Both the position numbers and the translations under genes were made by a program. This document shows, one piece after another, positions 11,301 through 26,439 of a DNA stretch of 64,000 bases. The notes beneath the pieces are model-generated. The model worked only from the letters and a program-made list of their open reading frames with translations, was not told the origin of the DNA and made no database searches. The stretch covers positions 11,303 to 75,302 of the forward strand of contig DASUFP010000039.1 in the NCBI GenBank assembly GCA_036274495.1. Direction: 5' to 3'. The stretch is from Bacteroidia bacterium (GTDB lineage Bacteria > Bacteroidota > Bacteroidia > AKYH767-A > OLB10). How positions within the stretch are numbered: position 1 is the stretch's first letter; each line of letters begins with the position of its first letter.

Positions 11301-14300
11301 TTGATGATGCAGGATTACCGACTACCGTTATATAATTGGGTATAGTAAGTGTATCTATCTTACCTGGAAAAGTTGCAATTAATGTGACATCGTATATTCC
11401 TGGAGTATTATATACAATTGATGGGTTGGGCAAAGTTGATGTTGAAGGTATACCTCCTGGGAATTGCCACATAACATTTGAAGCTACTGTAGATTGATTA
11501 ATAAATTCAACTATACCATTTGCACAAATCGAAGTATTATTGGCACCAATTCCTGCTATAAATATTGAAGTATCGCTATAGATGTGAATCGGCACAAATG
11601 CGGTAACACCATTATAAGACAGATTTAGAATAGAATCTCCTTGATTTTTTCCAATAATGAAGCCTTGTCCTAAATGCTGCGCAAGATTAGTGTCCAATGA
11701 AATTTGTAGATTTGGGTCATATGAAATATCTCTAATAATCCCATCACTAAATATTCCTTTGATATTTAATTTAGCAATGAGTCCTACAGTTAGTTCAAGC
11801 ACATTCGGTTCGGCGAATATTGAATCAATATAAGCATTGGTATTAACATTAATTTTTATTGAATCCAAACAGGTATAATTCAATGTATCACCACCCAAAC
11901 TAACCAAGTTGACTATTCCAATAGCTTCTTGAGGAATTATATAACTATACGTAAGATGTGCAGTGATAGAATCATGAAATTCCGGTTCAATAAAATTATT
12001 TCCGGCACCAAATAAAATTTTATTTACATTTCCATGACCTTGTACAGATACTGCAATTGTATCTCCAGCATTAAAACTTTGATAATTGCTTGGAAATTGA
12101 AAAGTTACACTATCGAGTAATGGCATTGAATATTGTATCGGCAATGAAACATTAATGGTTGCTGGATTAGGTTGAGGTTCATTAATTAGCCCTGGCTCAA
12201 ATCCATCCATTGTAAACTTTGATAAATCAATTGGACTACTATTAATTAAATCCGTTAATACTCCCAAGATGCTTGGATTTGATGAAGCTCCCATGTGGCA
12301 CTGGTCGCTATAATCAGTGTTACTAATTTGAAAGCTGGATTCTTGCGAATGAACATCTACGATGTTGTCATTCTCTTCGCCATTAAATATATCATGAACT
12401 GAATATGCATTTGCTGCAGCAAAAATAACAGCTCTGCAACCTCCATTTGATTCCAATATATTCTCATCTTGATTAGTTGAAATCAAATTTGAAGGCACTT
12501 TGTTCTGAATAGCAGTAGGAATATTTAAATTTGAAATTGCAGTACTATTTACTCTCAAATCTTCTATAGCCCCTTTATAAGGATTTCTTCCAGTTAGAAA
12601 CAGCATCGTTCTTACTTGGTCGTTATCTGGCCAACCTATGTTTCCATCAGGCCAATTCAAGTAATTTGCCATTTGAGAACCATAATGAGGTGTATTGACA
12701 GTAAGAAGTTTTTGAATTTCACCTTTATAATTTGAGCTTTGCAAATATAATCTTGCAAGTACTCCTCCCATGCTATGAGCAATTACTACTAATTTACCAC
12801 AGGAAAAATAATTTTGTCTTGCTTTATAAAATAAGTCTGTTCTACCATTTATTATTACAAATCTGTTTTGATTAAAATAGACATCATTTGTTGATTTATA
12901 ATCTAATCGAAGTGTAAGAAAGTTAGTTTGGTAGTTTACATCATTTGAGAATACGTTTCCAGGATATAAATTCGTAACAAGCAATTCCATTTCAAACTCC
13001 TTAAATGCATCTCTATCCCCCCACAATCCATGAACCATCATCAATGGAGCCCTATAAATGTGAATAGGGAAATTTATACCAGATATTGGTGTATTGCCAT
13101 TATATATTATTTGTAAGCTGCATTCTCTTTTTAATTGACTCAGCTCCATATATGTCGGATGATGATAAACGAATTCCAATTCATTTGTTCCAATTACTGT
13201 AGGTGTATCGAAATATCCATATTTCTCAATGTCGTTTTGAATTTGACCATTTTCATTAAGTAATCTCAAGTTAATTGTTGAAATATCTGTTGCAAAAACT
13301 CGAATTCTGGTCGCAGCAGAACCATCGGCACAGATTTTAACTGGATTTGATGTGGCAAATGGGCTACCAGCATAAAGTGTTAATGGCTGAGCAAGTGCAG
13401 GAATATTGCTAACTTGATTGATAAAAGTGATATCATTAACAGATGGAGGCAGAGTATTTACCGTCGCATATCCATAGTCACAATCATTACAGGTAGACTC
13501 GAACCCATTTATATAAACTTTACATGCATAATTGCCACTCACAGTTGCCGTGAATGAAGCATTTGCACCAAGAGCCGTTCCAGTACAAGAAGTTCCTGCA
13601 TACCATTTATACGCATAACTTCCACCTGAGCCTCCTGTAGCGATGCAAGTCATTAGTACTGACCCAGTCCCTGTATTATCATTTACATTTGAAGTTGGGC
13701 TTGAACAAGAAGATGTTATGGTTGCCATTCCATAGTCACAGGAAAAACAAGTTGATTCAAATCCTGAAATATATGCTTTGCAGGCATAGTTTCCGGATAC
13801 AGTTGTGAGATAAGTTGAGTTCGTTCCAATAGGAATTCCGGAACATGAAGTGCCACTATACCATTTGTAAAGAACACTACCACCAGACCCACCGGAAGTG
13901 ATGCATGTTAAAGTTACATTTGGATTGCCTGAACTATTATTCACTGTTGCAATAGGTGAAGTACAACCACCTGGTGCAATTAAATAGGGTCCACCACTGG
14001 TCATACCATCACTTACCCATCCGGTCAATTTTTGTGTTGTTCCTCCACTACTTGTATAGCAATTTGGTGTCAAATAAACTTCATACCAATTGTCCCCATT
14101 GATAACTTGTGGAGAAGAGGTGGTTCTTGCAAGCTTTTGATTTGGCTCAAAAGAAGCCCATTGGTAAGCATAACCAGTATTATATATCCATGTTTGTGAC
14201 CCGTTTGCAGAATTTTTGATTAATACTCCATTGATTGCGCTTGGCTGAACAATTAAATAATTATTTGGTGTACTGGAAATCCCAAAGAAATTTGTAGCCA

Positions 14301-14813: not shown

Positions 14814-15614
14814 TTGGCTAAGAAGTACATTTATCGCCTAAATATTGTGATTTTTAGGTTTAGAAAAGTTCAACCCATGAATAATGTCATTCCAATTGTG
14901 ATTGCCTTTCATCCTTCAACCAGCAGATTCATTCACATTGATGAAGCCAGTAATGGACTATCTTGTAATTGTGTTTGCATTCAATGCAATGAAAAGCTTG
15001 AAGCCATACAAGGCAATAAAAGAAAGAGGCATTTCCGGCACCACGTTAATACCAACTGCGTAGGAGCAAAGGAAACTGCCCTTCATGAGTTAGGTAAGCA
15101 AATACTGGTTGAAAATAATCGGATTAATATCCGTAACCATGGTATCATTACATATTCCAATGCAATTGCTGAAAAAAGATTAGAAAAATATCGACCAGAT
15201 GTTACTGCGTTTTATGAAGGTCAACCTATATATTTCGAAATTTTTGTGTCTCATGCTGTTGATAAAGAGAAGGCCAAATTTTTCTCTGACAACAAAATTA
15301 AATCCTTAGAAATTGATTTAAGCAAAAGCTTGACGGCCAATTTTGATGAAATAAAACAAATGGTTTTGGAAAAGACTCAACTGCAAACCGTATTCTATTG
15401 GGAAGATATTTCCGAATTGCCTTTAATTGATAGGAAGTATGATGTCAGATTTTTTGAAAGCCTTATTTTATTCTTAGTTATTCTCTTGGCTTTCATTGGC
15501 ATCCTAAAACTCATGAAAAACAAAAACAAATTAAATTATACCTTCATCGCAAAATCTTCATATCAAAAGCTGAAAAACAAACCTTATGGCCTACGAAAAA
15601 CCTATTACAATTAA
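14814..15614 (+). CDS. CoiA-like family protein (competence protein CoiA-like predicted nuclease) with C-terminal hydrophobic segment. The start could be the downstream Met at 14874
   Basis: Motif LSCNCVCIQCNEKLEAIQGNKRKRHFRHHVNTNCVGAKETALHELGKQIL matches the CoiA N-terminal Zn-ribbon/HFAH/EH signature. The gene overlaps the next gene by 29 bp. Confidence 0.5.
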   Translation: MAKKYIYRLNIVIFRFRKVQPMNNVIPIVIAFHPSTSRFIHIDEASNGLSCNCVCIQCNEKLEAIQGNKRKRHFRHHVNTNCVGAKETALHELGKQILVENNRINIRNHGIITYSNAIAEKRLEKYRPDVTAFYEGQPIYFEIFVSHAVDKEKAKFFSDNKIKSLEIDLSKSLTANFDEIKQMVLEKTQLQTVFYWEDISELPLIDRKYDVRFFESLILFLVILLAFIGILKLMKNKNKLNYTFIAKSSYQKLKNKPYGLRKTYYN

Positions 15615-17361
15615 GGATGCGATTGAGAATATTCAAAAGAAGAAGTACGTTCTTCCATCAATTCAAAGAGAATTTGTATGGGAGGCAAATCAAATTGAAA
15701 AATTATTTGATTCTCTGCTTAGAGACTATCCTATTAGCACTTTTCTATTCTGGAATGTTGAAAAACTAAAAATTAATGAATTTCAATTTTATGAGTTTCT
15801 TCAACATTACCATGAGCGTGATGCGACTCATAACCCAAAGGCATCTTTAGCTAATGACGAGGATGTAATTGCAATTCTTGATGGACAACAACGCTTAACT
15901 TCACTTTTCATAGCCTTGAAGGGCACATATGCTGAAAAATTACCATATTATTCCTGGGATAGCAATAAAGCTTTCCCCAAGAAAAAGTTATACATTAACT
16001 TAATTAAGGAAGCCGAAGATGTTGAAATGTTATACAATTTTAAGTTCCTAACTGAAGAGGAAATCAAAAATCAATCTGACGGCTTTTATTGGTATGAAGT
16101 AAGTAATATTTTCGACATCAAGGAATATCCAGATGTAATGACCTTTTTAATTTCGAGTGGATTGACTGATTCCTCCAAATATACAGATGAACAGATTCGA
16201 TTCTCTATGAATACCATGAATAATCTGTATAATGCTATTCATCAAAAAGGAACAATTAATTTCTACCTGGAGCGAAGTGATAAACTTGATAAAGTGTTAC
16301 AGATATTCATCAGAATTAACAGTGGTGGAACAAAATTGAGTTATTCTGATTTATTATTGTCTGTAGCAACTGCACAATGGCAAGAAAAAGATGCCAGGCA
16401 AGAAATTCATGATTTTGTTGACGAATTAAATGGTATAGGCCAAGGTTTTGATTTTGACAAAGATTTCGTTTTAAAATCCTGCTTAGTATTAGGGGATTTT
16501 AATGATGTAAAATTTAAAGTTGACAATTTTACTAAAACCAATATGCTAAAGATTGAGTCTCTGTGGAATAATATTACTCAATCTGTTTACACCGCAGTAA
16601 AATTGGTATCAAATTTTGGATTTAATCGTTCAACCCTTACATCCGCAAACACCCTCATTCCAATTGCATACTATTTAATGAAGAATAATCATGACGAGGC
16701 CTTTTTGACCAAGACCAAGTTTGAGCTTGAACGACAAAAAATACGACAATGGCTTCTTAGAGTATTACTCAAAAGAGTTTTTAGTGGCACACCTGATAAT
16801 CTTTACCCACAATTAAGAAAACTTATCAATGACGGCAATGGCGAATTCCCTCTCCAATCAATAATTGAATTTTATAGAGGCACAAATAAGAGTATAATAT
16901 ATAATTCAGATGATATAAACACTCTTGTTGAAATGGAATATGGAAACAAGTTTTCGTTTGCTGCTTTAGCAATAATTTATCCGGAACTGAACCTCGTTCA
17001 TACGTTTCATATGGACCACATCCATCCAAAAAAATTCTTTAGTGAAGTAAAGCTCAAGAAGAGGGGTATAATTCCCGAACACATTAAATTCTTCCTTGAA
17101 AATTATAACAAACTGAGTAATATTCAACTATTGGAAGGCAATTTGAACAAACAAAAAAATGGAACAGAATTATCCTCATGGTTAAATGATAATTTCAAAA
17201 CCAGCTCAGCATCTCAAGCATTTAAAATGCTTCATATGATACCTGAAAACATTTCTTTAGAATTGGATAATTTTCAGCAATTCTACAATGTGAGAAAATC
17301 GCTATTGGTAAACAAGTTTTCGGAAATATTACTTGACCCAACACATGCAAATGCAAATTAA
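15586..17361 (+). CDS. GmrSD-family type IV (modification-dependent) restriction endonuclease (DUF262 ParB-like NTPase + DUF1524 His-Me nuclease)
   Basis: N-terminus YVLPSIQREFVWEANQIEKLFDSLLRDYPISTFLFW is the DUF262 signature. C-terminal HMDHIHPK is the DUF1524 HNH-like motif. Confidence 0.75.
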   Translation: MAYEKPITIKDAIENIQKKKYVLPSIQREFVWEANQIEKLFDSLLRDYPISTFLFWNVEKLKINEFQFYEFLQHYHERDATHNPKASLANDEDVIAILDGQQRLTSLFIALKGTYAEKLPYYSWDSNKAFPKKKLYINLIKEAEDVEMLYNFKFLTEEEIKNQSDGFYWYEVSNIFDIKEYPDVMTFLISSGLTDSSKYTDEQIRFSMNTMNNLYNAIHQKGTINFYLERSDKLDKVLQIFIRINSGGTKLSYSDLLLSVATAQWQEKDARQEIHDFVDELNGIGQGFDFDKDFVLKSCLVLGDFNDVKFKVDNFTKTNMLKIESLWNNITQSVYTAVKLVSNFGFNRSTLTSANTLIPIAYYLMKNNHDEAFLTKTKFELERQKIRQWLLRVLLKRVFSGTPDNLYPQLRKLINDGNGEFPLQSIIEFYRGTNKSIIYNSDDINTLVEMEYGNKFSFAALAIIYPELNLVHTFHMDHIHPKKFFSEVKLKKRGIIPEHIKFFLENYNKLSNIQLLEGNLNKQKNGTELSSWLNDNFKTSSASQAFKMLHMIPENISLELDNFQQFYNVRKSLLVNKFSEILLDPTHANAN

Positions 17362-17411: not shown

Positions 17412-18278
17412 TTATTCGGAATTCAACCGTTTAATATTTTTTGATAATGAAATCTGATTCATAAAATCCATTAAAAACCCATGGAATTTTAAATAGTATA
17501 AATATGGGGCACTTTCCACTCTATTAATTATTTGTTTTTGAGTATCATATTGCATACCTCCCCTATGAGTTTTGTTTCTCATCAATTTAATCTCTTCAAA
17601 GGTCAACAGAATGTCCTTAAATCGTTCTTCAGACAATACTTCCTCGTCAAAGTATAAGTAATACACCAGAAGTCGGAATCTTTGAAGAATCTCCTTGATG
17701 TCATTTTTCGTGGCATCTTTGAAATAATTGTCATAATCCGCTCCAGTATAATATTTATTACTTGGCTTAAATTTTATTCTTAGAATTGTTGACTCCAAAG
17801 AAAACCCTTTCCTTGATTTATCCTGCTGCTGGGTAATTTTATTATACCAAGTATTGGTAATCAGTTGTAACTTTCTATCTAATTTAAATTTATCAAATAA
17901 AGTTGAGTTTTCATAAATTGCATTTATAACACACTCCAGTTGCTGATATATGGAAACACAAAATCGCTCAAAATCATCCCTTCGTTTTTGATGTTCCATT
18001 TCAACAAAATCACTAACCAATTTTCTTTGAACTTCCGTTGACAATAGGTTATAAATACCTAAACATCCATAAAATTCCTGAGCTTGCTTGAATATGACCG
18101 GCTCCACTGCCTGTTCATGCACCAACCTTATAACTGAATTAGCAAATTCCTTCCCTGCCAGAGTGTAGAACTTCTCCTTAGCAGAAATTACATCTGAATG
18201 CTCCTTACCCAGTGTCCGTTCAAGAATATCTATTTGCTCTTGAATATCCATTAAGAATCGCAGCCTGTTCAATTCCAT
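17412..18278 (-). CDS. Retron-associated hypothetical protein (candidate effector), translationally coupled to the reverse transcriptase. No recognizable domain
   Basis: The start codon overlaps the RT stop at 18278. The 288-aa protein is alpha-helical and unassigned. Confidence 0.5.
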   Translation of the reverse strand: MELNRLRFLMDIQEQIDILERTLGKEHSDVISAKEKFYTLAGKEFANSVIRLVHEQAVEPVIFKQAQEFYGCLGIYNLLSTEVQRKLVSDFVEMEHQKRRDDFERFCVSIYQQLECVINAIYENSTLFDKFKLDRKLQLITNTWYNKITQQQDKSRKGFSLESTILRIKFKPSNKYYTGADYDNYFKDATKNDIKEILQRFRLLVYYLYFDEEVLSEERFKDILLTFEEIKLMRNKTHRGGMQYDTQKQIINRVESAPYLYYLKFHGFLMDFMNQISLSKNIKRLNSE

Positions 18279-19450
18279 TACAATTTATATTTTAACATAG
18301 CATTTTCTACCCCTTCAGATTCCCATATATTCAATATTTCAAGAATTGATTTGGTTTCAACATTCGAGTTTAAATCAATTGAAACGGATTCTGGTGTTTT
18401 CATTACCAGGCTCTGGTATTTCTCAAGCATTCGCTTTACAATAACATCATCCTTGCCTCTCACCATACTGATAAAATCAATCCGGCCCTTTAAAACATTG
18501 GTCAAGGACTTTCTTGTTGAATCTATCAGATAAACCTTGGTTTTATCAATATCTGAATTTAGTCGCTTTTGTGCGAATTCAAACCCAAAGCTATCCCATA
18601 CATATAATAGTAATCTGGTATAACCCATGTAACTTTGATTAACGTTCACTTTCCTATTAACAATTAAGCCGGTTACTTCCTGGCGATTTTTCCACGATTG
18701 TAGGCGTACTTTAGTTTCATTGATATTATACTTTTCATCCTTCACTATTTTTTCAATTTTGTCGATGAAGTCATCAATGAAAATATCTTTGTTCGAAGAA
18801 AATGTTATATCATCAGCATACCTCGAATACCTACATCCATTCTCTTTACTAAGCTTAAACAATTTTCGGTCGAGCCTTTGGCAGACAATATTCGTTAATA
18901 TTGGTGATGTAGGAGCCCCTTGCGGTAGAACCCCATTTTCACAACATAGGTTTGCAATCAAAAATGCAAGCGGCTCTTTATCTCCGGAGAGATTGAATGG
19001 GTTTAACCCTAAAACCGTTTTGACACGACGGAAATCTGTTGAAGGAAAGAATTCCTTTAAATCAATATTGTAAACAAATGCTTTATCTACATGAATCTTC
19101 GCATTATGGACAATACTTTTTTGATAAACAAATCCGGTAGCACAATGGTGAGGATTAAAAATAGCAGTAAAAATAACTGAAATGGCTTTCTGTAATAATT
19201 TCAGCGAAGCTATAGGAGCAGAAATATCTCTTGTATCACCATTCTTCTTTGGAATTTGAAATGTTTTATAGCGGGAGTTCTTTTTAAAAGCAAGGAATCG
19301 TAGAGTTTTAGCCTCAAACTTAATAGGCTTTTTTACATTTGGGTAAAGCTTTCCTAAAACATGATTAATTAATCCCGTCAGTTGCTTTTCATTTAACACC
19401 TGGGGATACCGTTTCCGAATTTCGTTTAATAATTCCTTTTCAATTTTCAT
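18278..19450 (-). CDS. ret: Retron-type reverse transcriptase
   Basis: RT motifs FQIPKKNGDTRDISAP, LPQGAPTSP and YSRYADDITFSS (YADD). Retron-specific NAxxH (VHNAKIH) and VTG (RQEVTGLIVN) motifs are present. The true start is the Met of MKIEKE at 19450 (the track ORF extends upstream into the ncRNA). Confidence 0.8.
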   Translation of the reverse strand: MKIEKELLNEIRKRYPQVLNEKQLTGLINHVLGKLYPNVKKPIKFEAKTLRFLAFKKNSRYKTFQIPKKNGDTRDISAPIASLKLLQKAISVIFTAIFNPHHCATGFVYQKSIVHNAKIHVDKAFVYNIDLKEFFPSTDFRRVKTVLGLNPFNLSGDKEPLAFLIANLCCENGVLPQGAPTSPILTNIVCQRLDRKLFKLSKENGCRYSRYADDITFSSNKDIFIDDFIDKIEKIVKDEKYNINETKVRLQSWKNRQEVTGLIVNRKVNVNQSYMGYTRLLLYVWDSFGFEFAQKRLNSDIDKTKVYLIDSTRKSLTNVLKGRIDFISMVRGKDDVIVKRMLEKYQSLVMKTPESVSIDLNSNVETKSILEILNIWESEGVENAMLKYKL

Positions 19451-19453
19451 AAA

Positions 19454-19649
19454 ATGGGTGCCCGATGGATTTTCTCTTATGGATGAACACAGCCTTTCTT
19501 TCAAAAAAAAGAAAAACTTTAAGCATGTAATGAAACTGTTCTTCCAGGTTTTCAACGCCAAAGTGCGAGCGCAGAATCCACGTAGGAACATTACAAATAA
19601 CCATCAGCAATCGTGATGTAGAATCAAAATCTCTTATTCGGGCACCCAT
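19454..19649 (-). ncRNA. msr-msd: Retron msr-msd non-coding RNA (candidate) bounded by 12-bp a1/a2 inverted repeats
   Basis: The inverted repeat atgggtgcccga (19454-19465) and tcgggcacccat (19638-19649) flanks ~170 nt immediately upstream of the RT start, as in known retrons. Confidence 0.5.
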
Positions 19650-19679
19650 GATACACACAATGATAAATAAAATAATCAA

Positions 19680-20666
19680 TTAATTTAGAAAGGTTGGGGG
19701 ATTGATTCTCAAATGATTAGTAAGTTTTTGTGTGCCAGGTAAACTCTGTCCACCATCATACCACCTCTGGTCTGCAGCAGCAATCTTCTTCATCCGGGCT
19801 TCCCCAATCTTCTCAATCATTTTAACCTTCCGGTCATAGTTTGATTCCGGGTGCTTCATTTTTAGTAAAACCACCAGAAATTCTACCATCATCAATAGTC
19901 CGGTAAAAATGAAATACATGATTCCCATAGCCCAGTCTGAAAACACCAGTTCAAACGTAGCCTTAATCCTGTTTAACAACATTCCTTCTCCAAATGAAGC
20001 TCTGACAAGTTGTTCAGAAGAATCCTTTTCGGAATCTGATAGCTGTTGAAGTTTTACCATGTCGGCATTGCGATTCTGGAATTCAGCATACTGTTTATCT
20101 GCTAATAAACTTTTCAAGGCCGTCACTTTTCCACTACCATACTTTCCGGTTCCATATGTACCATCGGATTCAGCTTTAACATCCTGTACCCCTCGTTGCC
20201 AATCCTGGAAAGCAACATCCGATTTCTGTTGCGCTTCGACTATTCTGGCTGCAAAATCCGATTCCACTTTTTTCCTTTCTGCATCGACTTTTACTTCCAA
20301 AGTTTGAGCAAGGTGATGGTCGATATCTTCTTTGAATACAATCTCATCAATGATAACAGAGCCGATTGTTGCAACAAAAAATCCCAGCAGCAATCTGATA
20401 ACACTGATGGTACCACAACAATCAGCAAGTATAATGGAACGGTCAATCAGGAAGACAACAAATCCTGCAATTGAGCCGGCAATAATTCCATTGAATGCTG
20501 ACATATGGAAAATCTGAGTAGCCATACCGTAACCGGTGAGGAACCATAAGATGACAGGGAGAAAAAGTGCGTTAGCAAACATCATCACTTTTTTCTTACT
20601 GGTAGGTGTATCGTTGACTAACATGTTGTAGTCATCGCCGGTGATTTTAGAGGAGAATTTGAGCAT
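19680..20666 (-). CDS. Membrane protein with N- and C-terminal transmembrane helices flanking a coiled-coil region (DUF4407-like architecture)
   Basis: Hydrophobic segments FANALFLPVILWFLTGYG, IIAGSIAGFVVFLI and GIMYFIFTGLLMMVEFLVVLL. The central region is Lys/Glu/Gln-rich and coiled-coil-like. Confidence 0.55.
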   Translation of the reverse strand: MLKFSSKITGDDYNMLVNDTPTSKKKVMMFANALFLPVILWFLTGYGMATQIFHMSAFNGIIAGSIAGFVVFLIDRSIILADCCGTISVIRLLLGFFVATIGSVIIDEIVFKEDIDHHLAQTLEVKVDAERKKVESDFAARIVEAQQKSDVAFQDWQRGVQDVKAESDGTYGTGKYGSGKVTALKSLLADKQYAEFQNRNADMVKLQQLSDSEKDSSEQLVRASFGEGMLLNRIKATFELVFSDWAMGIMYFIFTGLLMMVEFLVVLLKMKHPESNYDRKVKMIEKIGEARMKKIAAADQRWYDGGQSLPGTQKLTNHLRINPPTFLN

Positions 20667-20725
20667 GGTTAATGAGGTTAAAAGGTTAATAATTTTGTTG
20701 GTTGAATCATGTTTTAACAGGGATG

Positions 20726-21343
20726 TCAGTTAAACATCCCTGTTGTTTGAGCGAACAGTTTCGCCTCCTGGTACTCCCTGCATCCACGCAGGTAGCCTTC
20801 CCGGTATTGATGAATGGCTTTCATGACCAGTCCTTCATCTTCCGCCGAATAAGCCTTCTCAGCCTCCAACTTACTGATGTTGGATTCAATCTCTGAAATA
20901 CGGAGGTCAAGTTGTTCGCTCAGCCTTTCGGATAAGCCACGGGTCTCAATCTCTTGGTTGCGCAGTTGGAAAATCTCCTGCTTGCGAACATCAATTGCCC
21001 GGTCGATAATCTGACGAAAACTTGCCCGGATGATTGAAAGTTTCTGTTGCAGAAACTCCGTTGTATGCATGGCATAACCATCATTAAACCCGGTAGAAGA
21101 AAAATCAGCCTGCATGAACTCCTGCAGTGGACTCAATTGCTCTTGTTCCGGTTGTTCAACCGGCGGAGGTGTATTATCCACGAACAACCCTTTCAACAGG
21201 TCATTTGCGAATTCAGTTGAAGAATTGGATTCAACTGGTTGAGTTTCCAGTTGAGAATTGCTGGGCTCAGTTTTCGCTCCGAAGCCGAAGAGCTTTCTCA
21301 AGAAGTTCATAAGTGAATGGGTTAAAAGGTTAAAATTTTTCAT
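20726..21343 (-). CDS. Hypothetical coiled-coil protein
   Basis: 205-aa ORF that overlaps the upstream HNH gene by 14 bp. Heptad-like charged C-terminal half. Confidence 0.45.
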   Translation of the reverse strand: MKNFNLLTHSLMNFLRKLFGFGAKTEPSNSQLETQPVESNSSTEFANDLLKGLFVDNTPPPVEQPEQEQLSPLQEFMQADFSSTGFNDGYAMHTTEFLQQKLSIIRASFRQIIDRAIDVRKQEIFQLRNQEIETRGLSERLSEQLDLRISEIESNISKLEAEKAYSAEDEGLVMKAIHQYREGYLRGCREYQEAKLFAQTTGMFN

Positions 21344-21692
21344 TTGAAGGTGAGTTAATAGGGAAGGATGGTATTGTGAATAATTGATGCCCCCTTTCGT
21401 GGCATTCCCGGCACAGGGTTACCAGATACTTGTTCGCATATTGCCAGGGTAATCGTTTCTGGCCTGTTTTGGCGCAGAAATGGTACTGCCGGTGGTGGAC
21501 ATCCAAATACTTCGTAGAACCGCAATTCAGGCATTTATGTCCATCCCTGTTCAGGATTACTTTCCGCTTCTCCCTCCATTGAGTAAATTGAAGCAGTCTG
21601 GCGTATTCCGGTTGATTATTGATTATTTCTGACATCAGATTAGAATTTGTTGTGATGCCAGTCCATTGACAAAAATGTGTCCAGATTGGCAC
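21330..21692 (-). CDS. HNH endonuclease (small standalone His-Me finger nuclease). The likely start is MSEIINN near 21635
   Basis: HKCLNCGS...LDVHHR...LVTLCRECHERGH is the Cys4 Zn-finger HNH signature. Confidence 0.7.
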   Translation of the reverse strand: MPIWTHFCQWTGITTNSNLMSEIINNQPEYARLLQFTQWREKRKVILNRDGHKCLNCGSTKYLDVHHRQYHFCAKTGQKRLPWQYANKYLVTLCRECHERGHQLFTIPSFPINSPSNEKF

Positions 21693-21699
21693 CTATTTG

Positions 21700-22120
21700 T
21701 ATATCAATTGATTATAATTTTATCATCTATCATATTATGATTTATAATATCATTTTATGATATTATATCAACGTCTTTCGAAGTTCAATTGAACAGAATA
21801 TGATGTCTTTTCCCATTTGAGGAGCTTGGAAAAGCGTGATGAAAAACAGTAAAATCCTGATATTCAGTTAGTAAACGAAACCGACAGTTAACCGCAGTTA
21901 AGGGTAATAAAGAAAAGCATAGTAAACTGAAACTTGAATAAACTAAAAGCAGAATGAACCTAAACAGAAAAATAAACCTATCCGGACCTTAACCTCAGTT
22001 AAGGGTATTATAGTAAACTACAGTAAAGTAAATCATAGGAAAGATTAATAAACCCAAAGAAAAAAAAAGCAGAGTATAGGAAAACCCGCACCTTAACCTG
22101 GCTTACCGGTCACACACCAA
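21700..22120. repeat. AT-rich intergenic region with palindromic ATCATATTATGAT-like elements and ~100-bp imperfect direct repeats (cagttaagggta... x2-3)
   Basis: ttaaccgcagttaagggtaa at 21890, ttaacctcagttaagggtat at 21989 and ccttaacctggcttacc at 22091. The stretch lies upstream of the minus-strand HNH operon. Confidence 0.35.
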
Positions 22121-22132
22121 ACCTCAATTTAA

Positions 22133-24990: not shown

Positions 24991-26439
24991 TTATGAAAAC
25001 ATGTCGGGGTCAATATTAGCATCCTTCATCTTTTTCACCAACGTATTCACACTTCCATATCCAATTGCCAATCGTGTTTGTTCTTTGTTTCCGTTTTTCA
25101 GTTTGAGCACACGTTTAATATGTTCAGCTTCTACATGCTCAATCCTAAGTGGATTTTCTATCGGACTTACAATCATGCGTTCAGGCAAATCCTTTACTTG
25201 GACCAGACCATCACAAAAAATATGCAGTTTAGCAATCAAATTTTCAAGCTCACGCAGATTGCCTGGAAAATGATAATTCAACATAACTTCCATAGATTGT
25301 TTGTCGAACTCCAACAGTTTGGTTCGCTTTAGTTTTTTCTTGTAAAGTTTATTAAAAAACTCAATCATGTTTTTTAGCTCTGCTTTCCCCCTTTCCAGCA
25401 AGGCCGGTATATGTAATTCGCCAACAGCAAGCCGATAATATAAGTCCCACCGAAATTTATCCTCTTCACATCTCTTAATCAGGTTTTGATTGGTAGCACA
25501 AATTATCCTGACATCCACTTTTTCGGGTTTACCTCCAACCGGGTGTATTTCCTTCTGTTGTATGACTCGCAACAAAGCTTGTTGCATATAAGGGCTGATA
25601 TCACCAATTTCATCAAGAAAAATACTTCCTTTATCTGCTTCATGGAATAAGCCAGGCGCATCCTTGCCTGCCCCGGTAAAAGCCCCCTTTTTATAACCGA
25701 ACAGTCTTGATTCAAGAAGCTGGTCTCCTATACCGGCACAATTGAATACAATGAATGGTTTCCCTTTACGTGTTGATTGTTCGTGCACATAATTTGCCAG
25801 GTGCTCTTTACCGACTCCACTCATACCTAATATCAATGTTGTGATGTCATCGGTATGTGCAATTTTTAATGCCTGGTCATAAACTGGCTGAATCGAATCG
25901 GTTATTATATAATCAGAATCCTGTTTTGGTTTACCCGATTTCGATAACTCATTATCGAGTATAGTTACTGCCGTCGGGATTTGACTTTGTTCAAAGTTAA
26001 TTTCAACGAGCTCCGGCCTTTCCTTGCTTTTCGTGAATTTAGCTTCTCTTGATTGGAGTAATCTTGTCTTATAATTACCCCCCAGATGTATGAAATACCA
26101 GGCAATCTGCATTTGTGGGGTTCCCGGACTAACGAAAATATCAATCTCATCATCCTTTATGGATAGCATCCATCGCTCGACTTTCTGCCTGATTTCATTT
26201 ACATTAATTACATCATCCACACCCAAGTAAACAATTTCGAATTCCCTGCCTTTAAACTTTTTGGACAATAAGGTAAAAAGCTTTAGCGCACGCAAATCGT
26301 CCTCTTTTGCGCTCGACAAAATGTAATGTTTATCATGCTCGAAAAAGTTGCTATGGAACGAACATGTAGGTCCACTTTCAATTGCCTCTCCATCTTTGAA
26401 ATCATGCTGGAACGCTAACCAACTTACAAGAATTTTCAT
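24991..26439 (-). CDS. RtcR-like sigma-54-dependent transcriptional activator (N-terminal CARF-like domain + AAA+ sigma-54 interaction domain with GAFTGA + C-terminal helix-turn-helix)
   Basis: Walker A GMSGVGKE. FGYKKGAFTGAGKD contains the GAFTGA loop. The C-terminal Fis-type helix-turn-helix is present. N-terminal DIFVSPGTPQMQIAWYFIHLG closely parallels the E. coli RtcR CARF motif IHITTGTHVAQICWFLL. Confidence 0.8.
   Translation of the reverse strand: MKILVSWLAFQHDFKDGEAIESGPTCSFHSNFFEHDKHYILSSAKEDDLRALKLFTLLSKKFKGREFEIVYLGVDDVINVNEIRQKVERWMLSIKDDEIDIFVSPGTPQMQIAWYFIHLGGNYKTRLLQSREAKFTKSKERPELVEINFEQSQIPTAVTILDNELSKSGKPKQDSDYIITDSIQPVYDQALKIAHTDDITTLILGMSGVGKEHLANYVHEQSTRKGKPFIVFNCAGIGDQLLESRLFGYKKGAFTGAGKDAPGLFHEADKGSIFLDEIGDISPYMQQALLRVIQQKEIHPVGGKPEKVDVRIICATNQNLIKRCEEDKFRWDLYYRLAVGELHIPALLERGKAELKNMIEFFNKLYKKKLKRTKLLEFDKQSMEVMLNYHFPGNLRELENLIAKLHIFCDGLVQVKDLPERMIVSPIENPLRIEHVEAEHIKRVLKLKNGNKEQTRLAIGYGSVNTLVKKMKDANIDPDMFS

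Follow-up and report, generated by a model that had tools for sequence, protein, structure and literature searches.

An HNH, helical-protein, and DUF4407 gene trio beside a retron: a candidate separate, membrane-associated nuclease operon of Bacteroidota

Do genes that stand directly beside a retron belong to it, or do they form a system of their own? The question is raised by a 64,000-nucleotide (nt) stretch of a Bacteroidia bacterium (positions 11,303 to 75,302 of contig DASUFP010000039.1, assembly GCA_036274495.1), referred to here as the window, in which three consecutive minus-strand open reading frames (ORFs) at 19680 to 21692 encode, in 5′ to 3′ order, an HNH nuclease, a middle helical protein designated CC, and a DUF4407 membrane protein. 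A first-pass annotation of the sequence had offered two readings of this trio, as accessory effectors of the adjacent retron or as a separate small defense system. We favor, with middling confidence, a form of the second: the trio would be a self-contained, separate three-gene operon of Bacteroidota defense islands, a membrane-anchored HNH system for which the retron is interchangeable cargo. This reading fits the mutual co-conservation of the three genes and their defense-island setting, from which we infer the defense role.

Conservation of the gene trio

The three genes, with starts assigned from homologues, are as follows.

21330..21635, minus strand: mini HNH nuclease gene, 101 amino acids (aa); matches to PHROG HNH families, conserved ligands, and a ratio of nonsynonymous to synonymous substitution rates (dN/dS) of 0.06 against L001
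20726..21310, minus strand: CC gene, 194 aa, predicted cytosolic protein; family of 220 representatives, adjoining DUF4407 in 41/41 loci
19680..20666, minus strand: DUF4407 membrane protein gene, 328 aa; PF14362 match at E=1.6e-28, hairpin in the AlphaFold2 model, hydropathy and charge

The first-pass annotation had placed three same-strand genes directly 5′ of the retron noncoding RNA (ncRNA), and the ORFs are confirmed, with the a1 repeat of the retron beginning 30 nt after the DUF4407 stop codon. Two of its gene lengths required revision. The HNH gene had been described as encoding 120 aa and overlapping the next gene by 14 bp, which corresponds to the longest ORF, starting at a GTG at 21692; homologues instead place the start at the ATG at 21635. 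CC, reported as a 205-aa coiled-coil protein, is approximately right as a helical protein, given the bundle predicted by AlphaFold2, but homologues place its start at M12 of the 205-aa ORF (position 21310), a methionine that is invariant in alignment A2, and its length is therefore 194 aa. Because the homologues start at 21635 and 21310, the overlap is most likely an artifact of longest-ORF calling. The corrected HNH-CC spacer is ~19 nt, and the same spacer measures 17 to 49 nt in most other loci. The dN/dS of all three trio genes is 0.06 to 0.11 against sister loci, which indicates that the genes are real and under purifying selection.

To compare gene neighborhoods, 47 trio loci (labeled L001 to L047) were collected by exact-protein look-ups, a scan of Genome Taxonomy Database species genomes, and a scan of JGI metagenomes, all anchored on DUF4407 or CC, and their genes were identified by searching every ORF with profiles. 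Among loci whose upstream sequence reaches 700 nt or more, CC immediately precedes DUF4407 in 41/41; where it reaches 1100 nt or more, HNH immediately precedes CC in 38/40. The order is kept, on the same strand, down to 23 to 25% DUF4407 identity (L019, L021, and L041 to L043). True intergenic gaps within the trio range from a few to ~100 nt, and apparent overlaps correspond to over-extended ORF starts. Pairwise identities also co-vary with those of DUF4407, with r=0.92 for CC (703 pairs) and r=0.77 for HNH (528 pairs). All taxonomically labeled trio records belong to Bacteroidota (Chitinophagaceae, Cyclobacteriaceae, Bacteroidales, Saccharicrinis, and the isolate Larkinella knui). Thus, the conserved adjacency, its retention at low identity, and the co-varying divergence indicate that HNH-CC-DUF4407 is a conserved operon-like unit of Bacteroidota.

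Within this unit, the comparison of the window with its relative L001 reveals a discontinuity. Nucleotide identity is 92 to 97% from an upstream sigma-54 activator gene through CC, falls to 73 to 83% at the start of DUF4407 (20656), and stays low through the retron except in the ncRNA, which is 92% identical. Synonymous divergence (dS) is 0.3 to 0.4 for HNH and CC and 1.55 for DUF4407. We read the CC/DUF4407 junction at 20656 as marking a recombination boundary inside the trio. No trio homologues were found in IMG/VR viral contigs, phage genomes, or plasmid collections, and a phage or plasmid origin was rejected on that basis. Two of the collected loci, L011 and L014, come from the same metagenome-assembled genome (CAZCXH01): the first is a CC and DUF4407 pair without HNH beside rsmE, and the second has all three genes, with an ATPase pair downstream.

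The three proteins and a proposed mechanism

The 328-aa protein matches Pfam PF14362 at E=1.6e-28 and 100.3 bits (cutoff, 31.3) over profile positions 4 to 294 of 297. The match is full-length and above the gathering score, and the protein is thus a bona fide member of DUF4407, a family without an assigned function. Four hydrophobic segments are evident from hydropathy (residues ~28-48, 58-76, 88-108, and 245-271), placing three transmembrane (TM) segments before a helical hairpin and one after it, in agreement with the first-pass description of a DUF4407-like protein with TM helices around a helical region. An AlphaFold2 model built from a 10-sequence alignment has a mean predicted local distance difference test (pLDDT) score of 65.6; within it, an antiparallel hairpin of helices 112-167 and 178-227 (~55 and 50 residues) reaches a pLDDT of 83 to 92, and its tip carries an invariant Gly-rich motif, E166-x-D168-G169...G172...G177...T182 (alignment A1). 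The N-terminus is KKK-rich and the C-terminal tail is basic (11 K/R versus 6 D/E), which, by the positive-inside rule, suggests that both termini are cytoplasmic and the hairpin periplasmic. Two invariant motifs assigned to the cytoplasm, the N-terminal DTPxSxKK and the C-terminal NYxxKxxxIExxGxxR, are candidate docking sites. A sequence search of the Protein Data Bank (PDB) with DUF4407 returned no relatives, a Foldseek search against the same database returned nothing under E=0.07, and a PADLOC RecD_like match (E=0.0048) was set aside as a chance coiled-coil match.

CC has no family match in Pfam, PADLOC, PHROG, or NCBIfam. A profile search of 1.84 billion cluster representatives recovered 220 CC-family representatives at E<=1e-10; a word-index profile search built from 86 CC sequences recovered no more than 16 proteins. 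Because all of the matches listed are 86 to 243 aa long, and most are ~170 to 240 aa, CC is a discrete, stand-alone, and previously unnamed protein family. Its N-terminal peptide, MNFLKKLFG, is conserved; the window's CC begins MNFLRKLFG. AlphaFold2 predicts a disordered N-terminus (residues ~1-55) and, after this linker, a bundle of three long helices at residues 60-190 with pLDDT >90. Matches to the ApoE coiled coil in a sequence search of the PDB were judged spurious.

The HNH protein has sub-threshold Pfam matches only, among them HNHc_6 at E=0.004, which does not reach the gathering score. Of the 17 PHROG families that the protein matches, 15 are HNH endonuclease families (best E=6.8e-12) and one is a terminase small subunit family; in NCBIfam it matches only IscB, over the HNH segment (27 bits), and a sequence search of the PDB found no relatives. 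In an alignment of 33 non-identical homologues, one of them truncated and one with a substitution beside C75, residues C35, C38, H47, H48, C75, C78, H79, and H83 are conserved in 90% or more of the sequences. The alignment pattern, Y..LL....W..KR..IL.RD...C.NCGS...L.VHHRQYH....PW.Y...YL.TLC..CH..GH, presents in canonical order the HH dyad, the distal His, and two CxxC zinc-ligand pairs of the HNH (beta-beta-alpha-Me) superfamily, and the central Asn of the motif is mostly replaced in homologues. At ~100 aa, the protein lacks a DNA-recognition domain and presumably has to be recruited or activated.

The size of the HNH protein and its terminase match bear on a role outside immunity, in which the trio would serve an integrative element or the cell envelope (entry exclusion, cos-phage-like DNA processing, or envelope stress) at a recombination hot spot, since ~100-aa HNH proteins are typical phage packaging accessories. 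The coincidence of recombination breakpoints with the trio edges points the same way, as does the block found in the window's clade, where a 195-aa recombinase-like gene, an extracytoplasmic function (ECF) sigma factor, and the sigma-54 activator stand in a low-GC island. We regard such a role as very unlikely, given that viral contigs, phage genomes, and plasmids yielded no homologue, that only one clade has the recombinase block while most loci consist of a WYL regulator and the trio alone, and that conjugation or packaging genes were not seen nearby.

The architecture of DUF4407 also invites an explanation through abortive infection, in which DUF4407 would permeabilize or depolarize the membrane and HNH and CC would act as sensor, trigger, or second effector. 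Among membrane-disrupting defense effectors, multi-TM proteins with helical hairpins are common; tight control by a WYL repressor would suit a product that is toxic; and two loci retain CC and DUF4407 without HNH. Similarity to known pore formers does not extend beyond generic helical hairpins, however, and the catalytic HNH is kept in 95% of loci, which suggests that the nuclease matters; we therefore hold this mode of action to be quite unlikely.

Under our preferred reading of the trio as a separate, membrane-anchored HNH system, DUF4407 would be an inner-membrane protein with four TM helices and both termini in the cytoplasm, and its ~8-nm antiparallel hairpin with the Gly-rich tip would extend into the periplasm, where it would report a disturbed envelope or incoming DNA. 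CC, in the cytosol, would dock on the conserved cytoplasmic motifs of DUF4407 and tether or activate the minimal HNH, and the HNH would nick or cut DNA at the membrane in the manner of Zorya type II. Control would be exerted by dedicated regulators, namely a divergent WYL-WCX regulator in many loci and a block of an ECF sigma factor and an RtcR-like sigma-54 activator in the window's clade. Co-oriented downstream cargo would probably be co-transcribed with the trio, and the retron, with its ncRNA, reverse transcriptase (RT), and HEPN-like effector, would be one of several exchangeable modules landing directly 3′ of DUF4407.

In Zorya II, the ZorAB inner-membrane complex, which bears an elongated helical extension, recruits the HNH nickase ZorE to the membrane on infection (PMC11890865). 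The three genes of the trio supply parts of the same kinds: a membrane protein from which a long helical structure projects, a soluble helical partner, and an HNH protein. The likeness is one of function, without homology. None of the trio proteins matched a ZorA or ZorB model or a Pfam MotA/ExbB or OmpA domain; DUF4407 is not MotA/ExbB-like, the trio lacks a peptidoglycan-binding ZorB, and the tail of ZorA is cytoplasmic, whereas the DUF4407 hairpin is predicted to be periplasmic. The HNH protein matches the PADLOC ZorE2 model at E=0.0043 and 14.4 bits and the NCBIfam ZorE model at 14.8 bits against a cutoff of 600, and the latter model spans 358 positions compared with ~100 aa for the trio HNH. 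Kiwa, which comprises the membrane sensor KwaA and KwaB, resembles the trio in concept, as a multi-TM sensor coupled to a cytosolic DNA-acting partner; it differs in domain content, and no PADLOC KwaA or KwaB match was found in the trio. With Menshen (NsnABC) the resemblance is restricted to the ATPases of sister loci, which are NsnB-like, while their partners and the trio proteins match none of its components.

Membership of the trio in Zorya II, Menshen, Kiwa, or the Septu/type I-A retron group was rejected, as no models match. Neither CC nor DUF4407 matched PADLOC-DB 2.0, candidate systems included, beyond the chance RecD_like hit, and no NCBIfam (June 2026) model matches either protein. 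No searchable paper or checked supplement links DUF4407 or the trio to defense, or DUF4407 to an HNH partner; mentions of DUF4407/PF14362 in the literature were restricted to unrelated gene lists and spurious coiled-coil matches on Lamassu SMC proteins. By guilt by association with its gene neighborhood, the trio is a candidate for a role in defense, and it is most likely an uncatalogued candidate anti-phage module that pairs a membrane component with a nuclease. If it protects against phages, it would constitute a Bacteroidota-specific system, provide a first function for DUF4407, and bring in an unnamed helical family. It would also be a second, non-homologous case, after Zorya II, of a membrane machine joined to an HNH nuclease.

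The trio, the retron, and exchangeable cargo

Downstream of the trio, the window contains the following neighboring features, p288 being the designation of the 288-aa protein encoded 3′ of the RT.

19650..19679, minus strand: 30-nt junction after the DUF4407 stop codon (alignment A8)
19454..19649, minus strand: retron ncRNA (msr-msd), 196 nt, with a 12-nt a1/a2 repeat and a fold at z=-3.2; neighboring cargo
18278..19450, minus strand: retron RT, 390 aa, ATG at 19450, matched by PADLOC and NCBIfam RT models; neighboring cargo
17412..18278, minus strand: p288, effector candidate of 288 aa with an RN(K)xxHR HEPN-like motif; neighboring cargo

A retron-clade RT was found within 10 kb or the available flanks in 12/47 trio loci, and 35/47 loci lacked one. 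All sampling was trio-anchored. The position of the RT relative to the trio varies as follows.

Directly downstream of the trio: window and L001
One gene after the trio: L004 and L009
After an ATPase pair: L028 and L047
2.5 kb downstream: L046
6 to 10 kb upstream: L016, L032, and L035
On the opposite strand: L010 and L029

Both distance and strand thus vary, and the trio shows no consistent co-occurrence or fixed arrangement with the RT and ncRNA. The gene-neighborhood comparison that the first-pass annotation had proposed as a check gives a divided answer: the trio genes are co-conserved with each other (41/41 and 38/40) and not with RTs (12/47).

These observations bear directly on the first-pass suggestion that HNH, CC, and DUF4407 are extra effectors of this retron, which would make it a new multi-gene retron type. 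The suggestion draws on the retron's location 30 nt away on the same strand in both the window and L001, and on the more divergent block, including the retron, that these two loci share from DUF4407 onward. It is contradicted by the 35 loci without an RT in the available flanks and by the unconstrained position and orientation of the RT elsewhere. Moreover, the retron already has a dedicated effector of its own, and no PADLOC retron-accessory model matches HNH, CC, or DUF4407. Relatives with 77 to 79% DUF4407 identity share the window's upstream block but carry ATPase systems in the retron's slot: a CSD-DUF3825 gene and an AAA_15/AAA_21 ATPase pair in L003, and the ATPase pair alone in L002 and L007. 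Judged from these comparisons, a strict retron-accessory role appears largely refuted, and we consider it very improbable. Seen at least from the trio's side, the analysis indicates that the trio is independent of the retron, and for the retron, HNH, CC, and DUF4407 should not be counted as its parts.

The boundary of the exchange is sharp. Between the loci carrying the retron (window and L001) and those carrying ATPases (L003 and L007), DNA homology runs ~30 nt past the DUF4407 stop codon and ends at a1, and this conserved 30-nt junction (19650..19679) might act as a promoter for the cargo or mark where recombination took place. In L024 and L025, which belong to another subclade, the DUF4407 proteins are 100% identical, the downstream ATPases are 29% identical, and the break falls right after the stop codon; given this swap between identical trios, the downstream ATPase was rejected as an obligate partner of HNH. 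The slot right after the DUF4407 stop codon is thus a precise exchange site for retrons and ATPase systems, and it could mark further Bacteroidota defense genes, including an uncatalogued retron effector and ATPase partners.

The same junctions underlie the most serious rival to our reading, a modular platform in which the trio would contribute a membrane sensor, an HNH effector, or both, together with a regulated promoter, as a common front end that cooperates with any inserted cargo. The gene right after the trio is co-oriented in ~30 of the 36 loci with downstream sequence and starts 7 to 30 nt past the stop codon in 15; no terminator-like site is predicted between DUF4407 and the retron; and the 30-nt junction is kept before different cargoes. 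RTs (12/47) and ATPase pairs (19/47) are also commoner than restriction-modification genes in the same flanks, and Septu and type I-A retrons are precedents for an ATPase, an HNH protein, and a retron acting together. Identical trios combined with 29%-identical ATPases nevertheless argue against specific protein contacts, and both kinds of cargo are self-contained, the ATPases coming with a partner and the retrons with an effector. In addition, many loci have non-defense or no co-oriented cargo (IS21, DnaB, DUF900, or rsmE upstream), and RTs also occur upstream, at a distance, or on the opposite strand. On balance, we regard cooperation of the trio with any inserted cargo as unlikely. A more specific form, in which the trio supplies the promoter and an executioner or sensor for exchangeable sensor modules (the retron with its HEPN-like effector, or NsnB-like ATPase pairs) recombined at its stop codon, and in which retron and trio cooperate non-specifically, seems to us rather unlikely. 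If the trio does act as such a front end, a new organizational principle linking retrons to a membrane-associated nuclease would follow.

Several observations weigh against our preferred reading of the trio as a separate system with interchangeable cargo. Two loci, L011 (with rsmE upstream) and L012, lack HNH, and the nuclease is thus not strictly obligatory. The whole DUF4407 model is mediocre (pLDDT 65.6), its topology is a prediction from the positive-inside rule, and fold searches of the trio proteins gave only generic hairpins and helical bundles. The defense role is assigned through guilt by association, and the contacts among the three proteins are putative. RTs in 26% and ATPase pairs in ~40% of loci seemingly exceed the level of unrelated neighbors, the expectation for RTs being drawn from the general rarity of retrons and not from a control set. 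The very short co-oriented junctions to cargo fit functional coupling as well, and, given the trio-anchored sampling, this retron type may depend on the trio.

Septu and type I-A retrons offer a point of comparison for the window, since here too an HNH gene stands beside a retron, and an AAA_15/AAA_21 ATPase occurs in the operon-like array of many sister loci. The window differs in that its cassette contains no ATPase, its HNH gene precedes the ncRNA, and the trio had no reported match to PtuA or PtuB; the first-pass remark that the layout departs from that of type I-A retrons therefore stands. Furthermore, the RT belongs to an XI/XII/I-C-like clade, and trio-adjacent ATPases are swapped independently of HNH.

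Island context, regulation, and the neighboring retron

The trio is found recurrently among known defense genes, an enrichment that is qualitative and made without a control set. AAA_15/AAA_21 ATPase pairs resembling NsnB, AriA, and AbiL occur in 19/47 trio loci, with modules at L005 3664-6136, L014 4142-7020, and L010 7479-10378 and in L022, L024 to L028, L031, L037, and L047. The best PADLOC match of the ATPases is NsnB (E from 1e-43 to 1e-48), followed by AriA and AbiLi; their partners, of 335 to 356 aa, fall into two families, neither of which has a PADLOC or Pfam match, and the two-gene modules may be uncatalogued defense pairs. Other genes in the trio flanks encode type I restriction enzymes (L009 and L016), an MkoA-like helicase (L018), RmuC (L015), Cas1/Cas2/Cas6 (L004 and L045), and IS21 (L039). 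Fusions of HARE-HTH, N6-methyltransferase, specificity, and HATPase_c domains lie near the trio at L035 11030-13891, L038 3716-6439, and the upstream ends of L001, L003, and L046. These fusion proteins are mad2-like in PADLOC and recall the methyltransferase and HATPase parts of MADS or "Ambrosia" systems.

In the window itself, a GmrSD-family type IV restriction enzyme (PADLOC HEC-05, E=5e-221) is encoded at 15586-17361 on the plus strand, convergent with the retron; L001 lacks this enzyme and has a TPR protein in its place. Trio, retron, and GmrSD are housed in a low-GC stretch at ~11000-49000 (0.30 to 0.42, compared with ~0.45 in the flanks), which corresponds to a ~38-kb genomic island.

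At least 12/31 loci have a divergent WYL-WCX regulator gene immediately before HNH, and this regulator co-varies with the trio (r=0.80). This arrangement, with the regulator directly upstream and co-varying, likens many trio loci to BrxR/CapW-type WYL islands. The window's clade differs in having no WYL gene; an ECF sigma factor, a 195-aa tyrosine-recombinase-like gene, and an RtcR-like sigma-54 activator are present instead. The activator gene (24991-26439, minus strand, in the window) matches NCBIfam RtcR over residues 82-417, including part of a CARF-like N-domain, and such an activator is found upstream of the trio in 10/47 loci. A search for sigma-54 promoters (TGGCAC-N5-TTGC, up to 2 mismatches) found none from 13.9 to 25.8 kb, and matches overall were as many as expected by chance; direct drive of the trio by the RtcR-like activator and sigma-54 thus appears unsupported, because no -24/-12 motif occurs in this interval. 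A scan for sigma-70-type promoters, a method ill-suited to Bacteroidota, gave 19 sites versus 18 expected. Sequence inspection of the region preceding the trio identified one further feature.

21693..22132, minus strand: upstream noncoding region with direct repeats and palindromes

It contains three copies of a ~25-nt direct repeat, of the type ACCCTTAACTG[AC]GGTTAA...CGG, and an AT-rich run of ATGATA/TATCAT palindromes. The repeats resemble operator sites, and the region is a probable promoter/operator of the trio.

The retron in the window looks complete on its own, with ncRNA, RT, and p288. A perfect 12-nt inverted repeat is formed by a1 (ATGGGTGCCCGA, 19649-19638) and a2 (TCGGGCACCCAT, 19465-19454). 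The ncRNA begins 30 nt past the DUF4407 stop codon (19682-19680) and ends 4 nt ahead of the RT start codon, and the 196-nt RNA folds with a1/a2 as its closing stem (z=-3.2). An a1/a2 repeat of its own was present just 5′ of the RT in each of the seven retrons examined (window, L001, L004, L009, L010, L016, and L035). An Rfam scan of 17 to 23 kb found no family, including no retron msr model, and retron-anchored searches of viral and plasmid collections gave no matches.

The RT matches the PADLOC models RT-Protease_XI, RT-TIR_XII, and RT-Toprim_I-C (E ~1e-107 to 1e-97) over their RT part only, and it also matches NCBIfam retron RT families. The p288 gene overlaps the RT gene by one base, and members of its family immediately follow the RT in seven loci (alignment A6): window 17412-18278, L001 10392-11267, L009 13456-14193, L010 12427-13212, L016 3757-4623, L032 1217-2002, and L035 3070-3930. 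Invariant residues in p288 comprise R234-N235-(K)-x-H238-R239, a HEPN-like Rx3-4H motif, together with D90, M94, D102, F106, Q113, and E115; none of Pfam, PADLOC, NCBIfam, or PHROG contains a family that matches the protein. A retron with a separate HEPN-like effector may represent an uncatalogued retron subtype. The PADLOC models closest to the RT describe fused RT-effector types (XI, XII, and I-C), whereas p288 is encoded by a separate gene.

A DUF3127 (OB-fold-like) gene occurs just 5′ of the retron ncRNA at L004 6682-7029, L010 14695-15451, L035 1265-1618, and L028 11427-11765 and may be an additional retron-associated gene. Longer retron-clade RTs, of 754 to 834 aa, follow the trio and an ATPase pair at L028 6579-9083 and L047 7060-9324. 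The RT of L047 is fused to a "HisKin-conflict" domain and represents another RT architecture in the same type of island.

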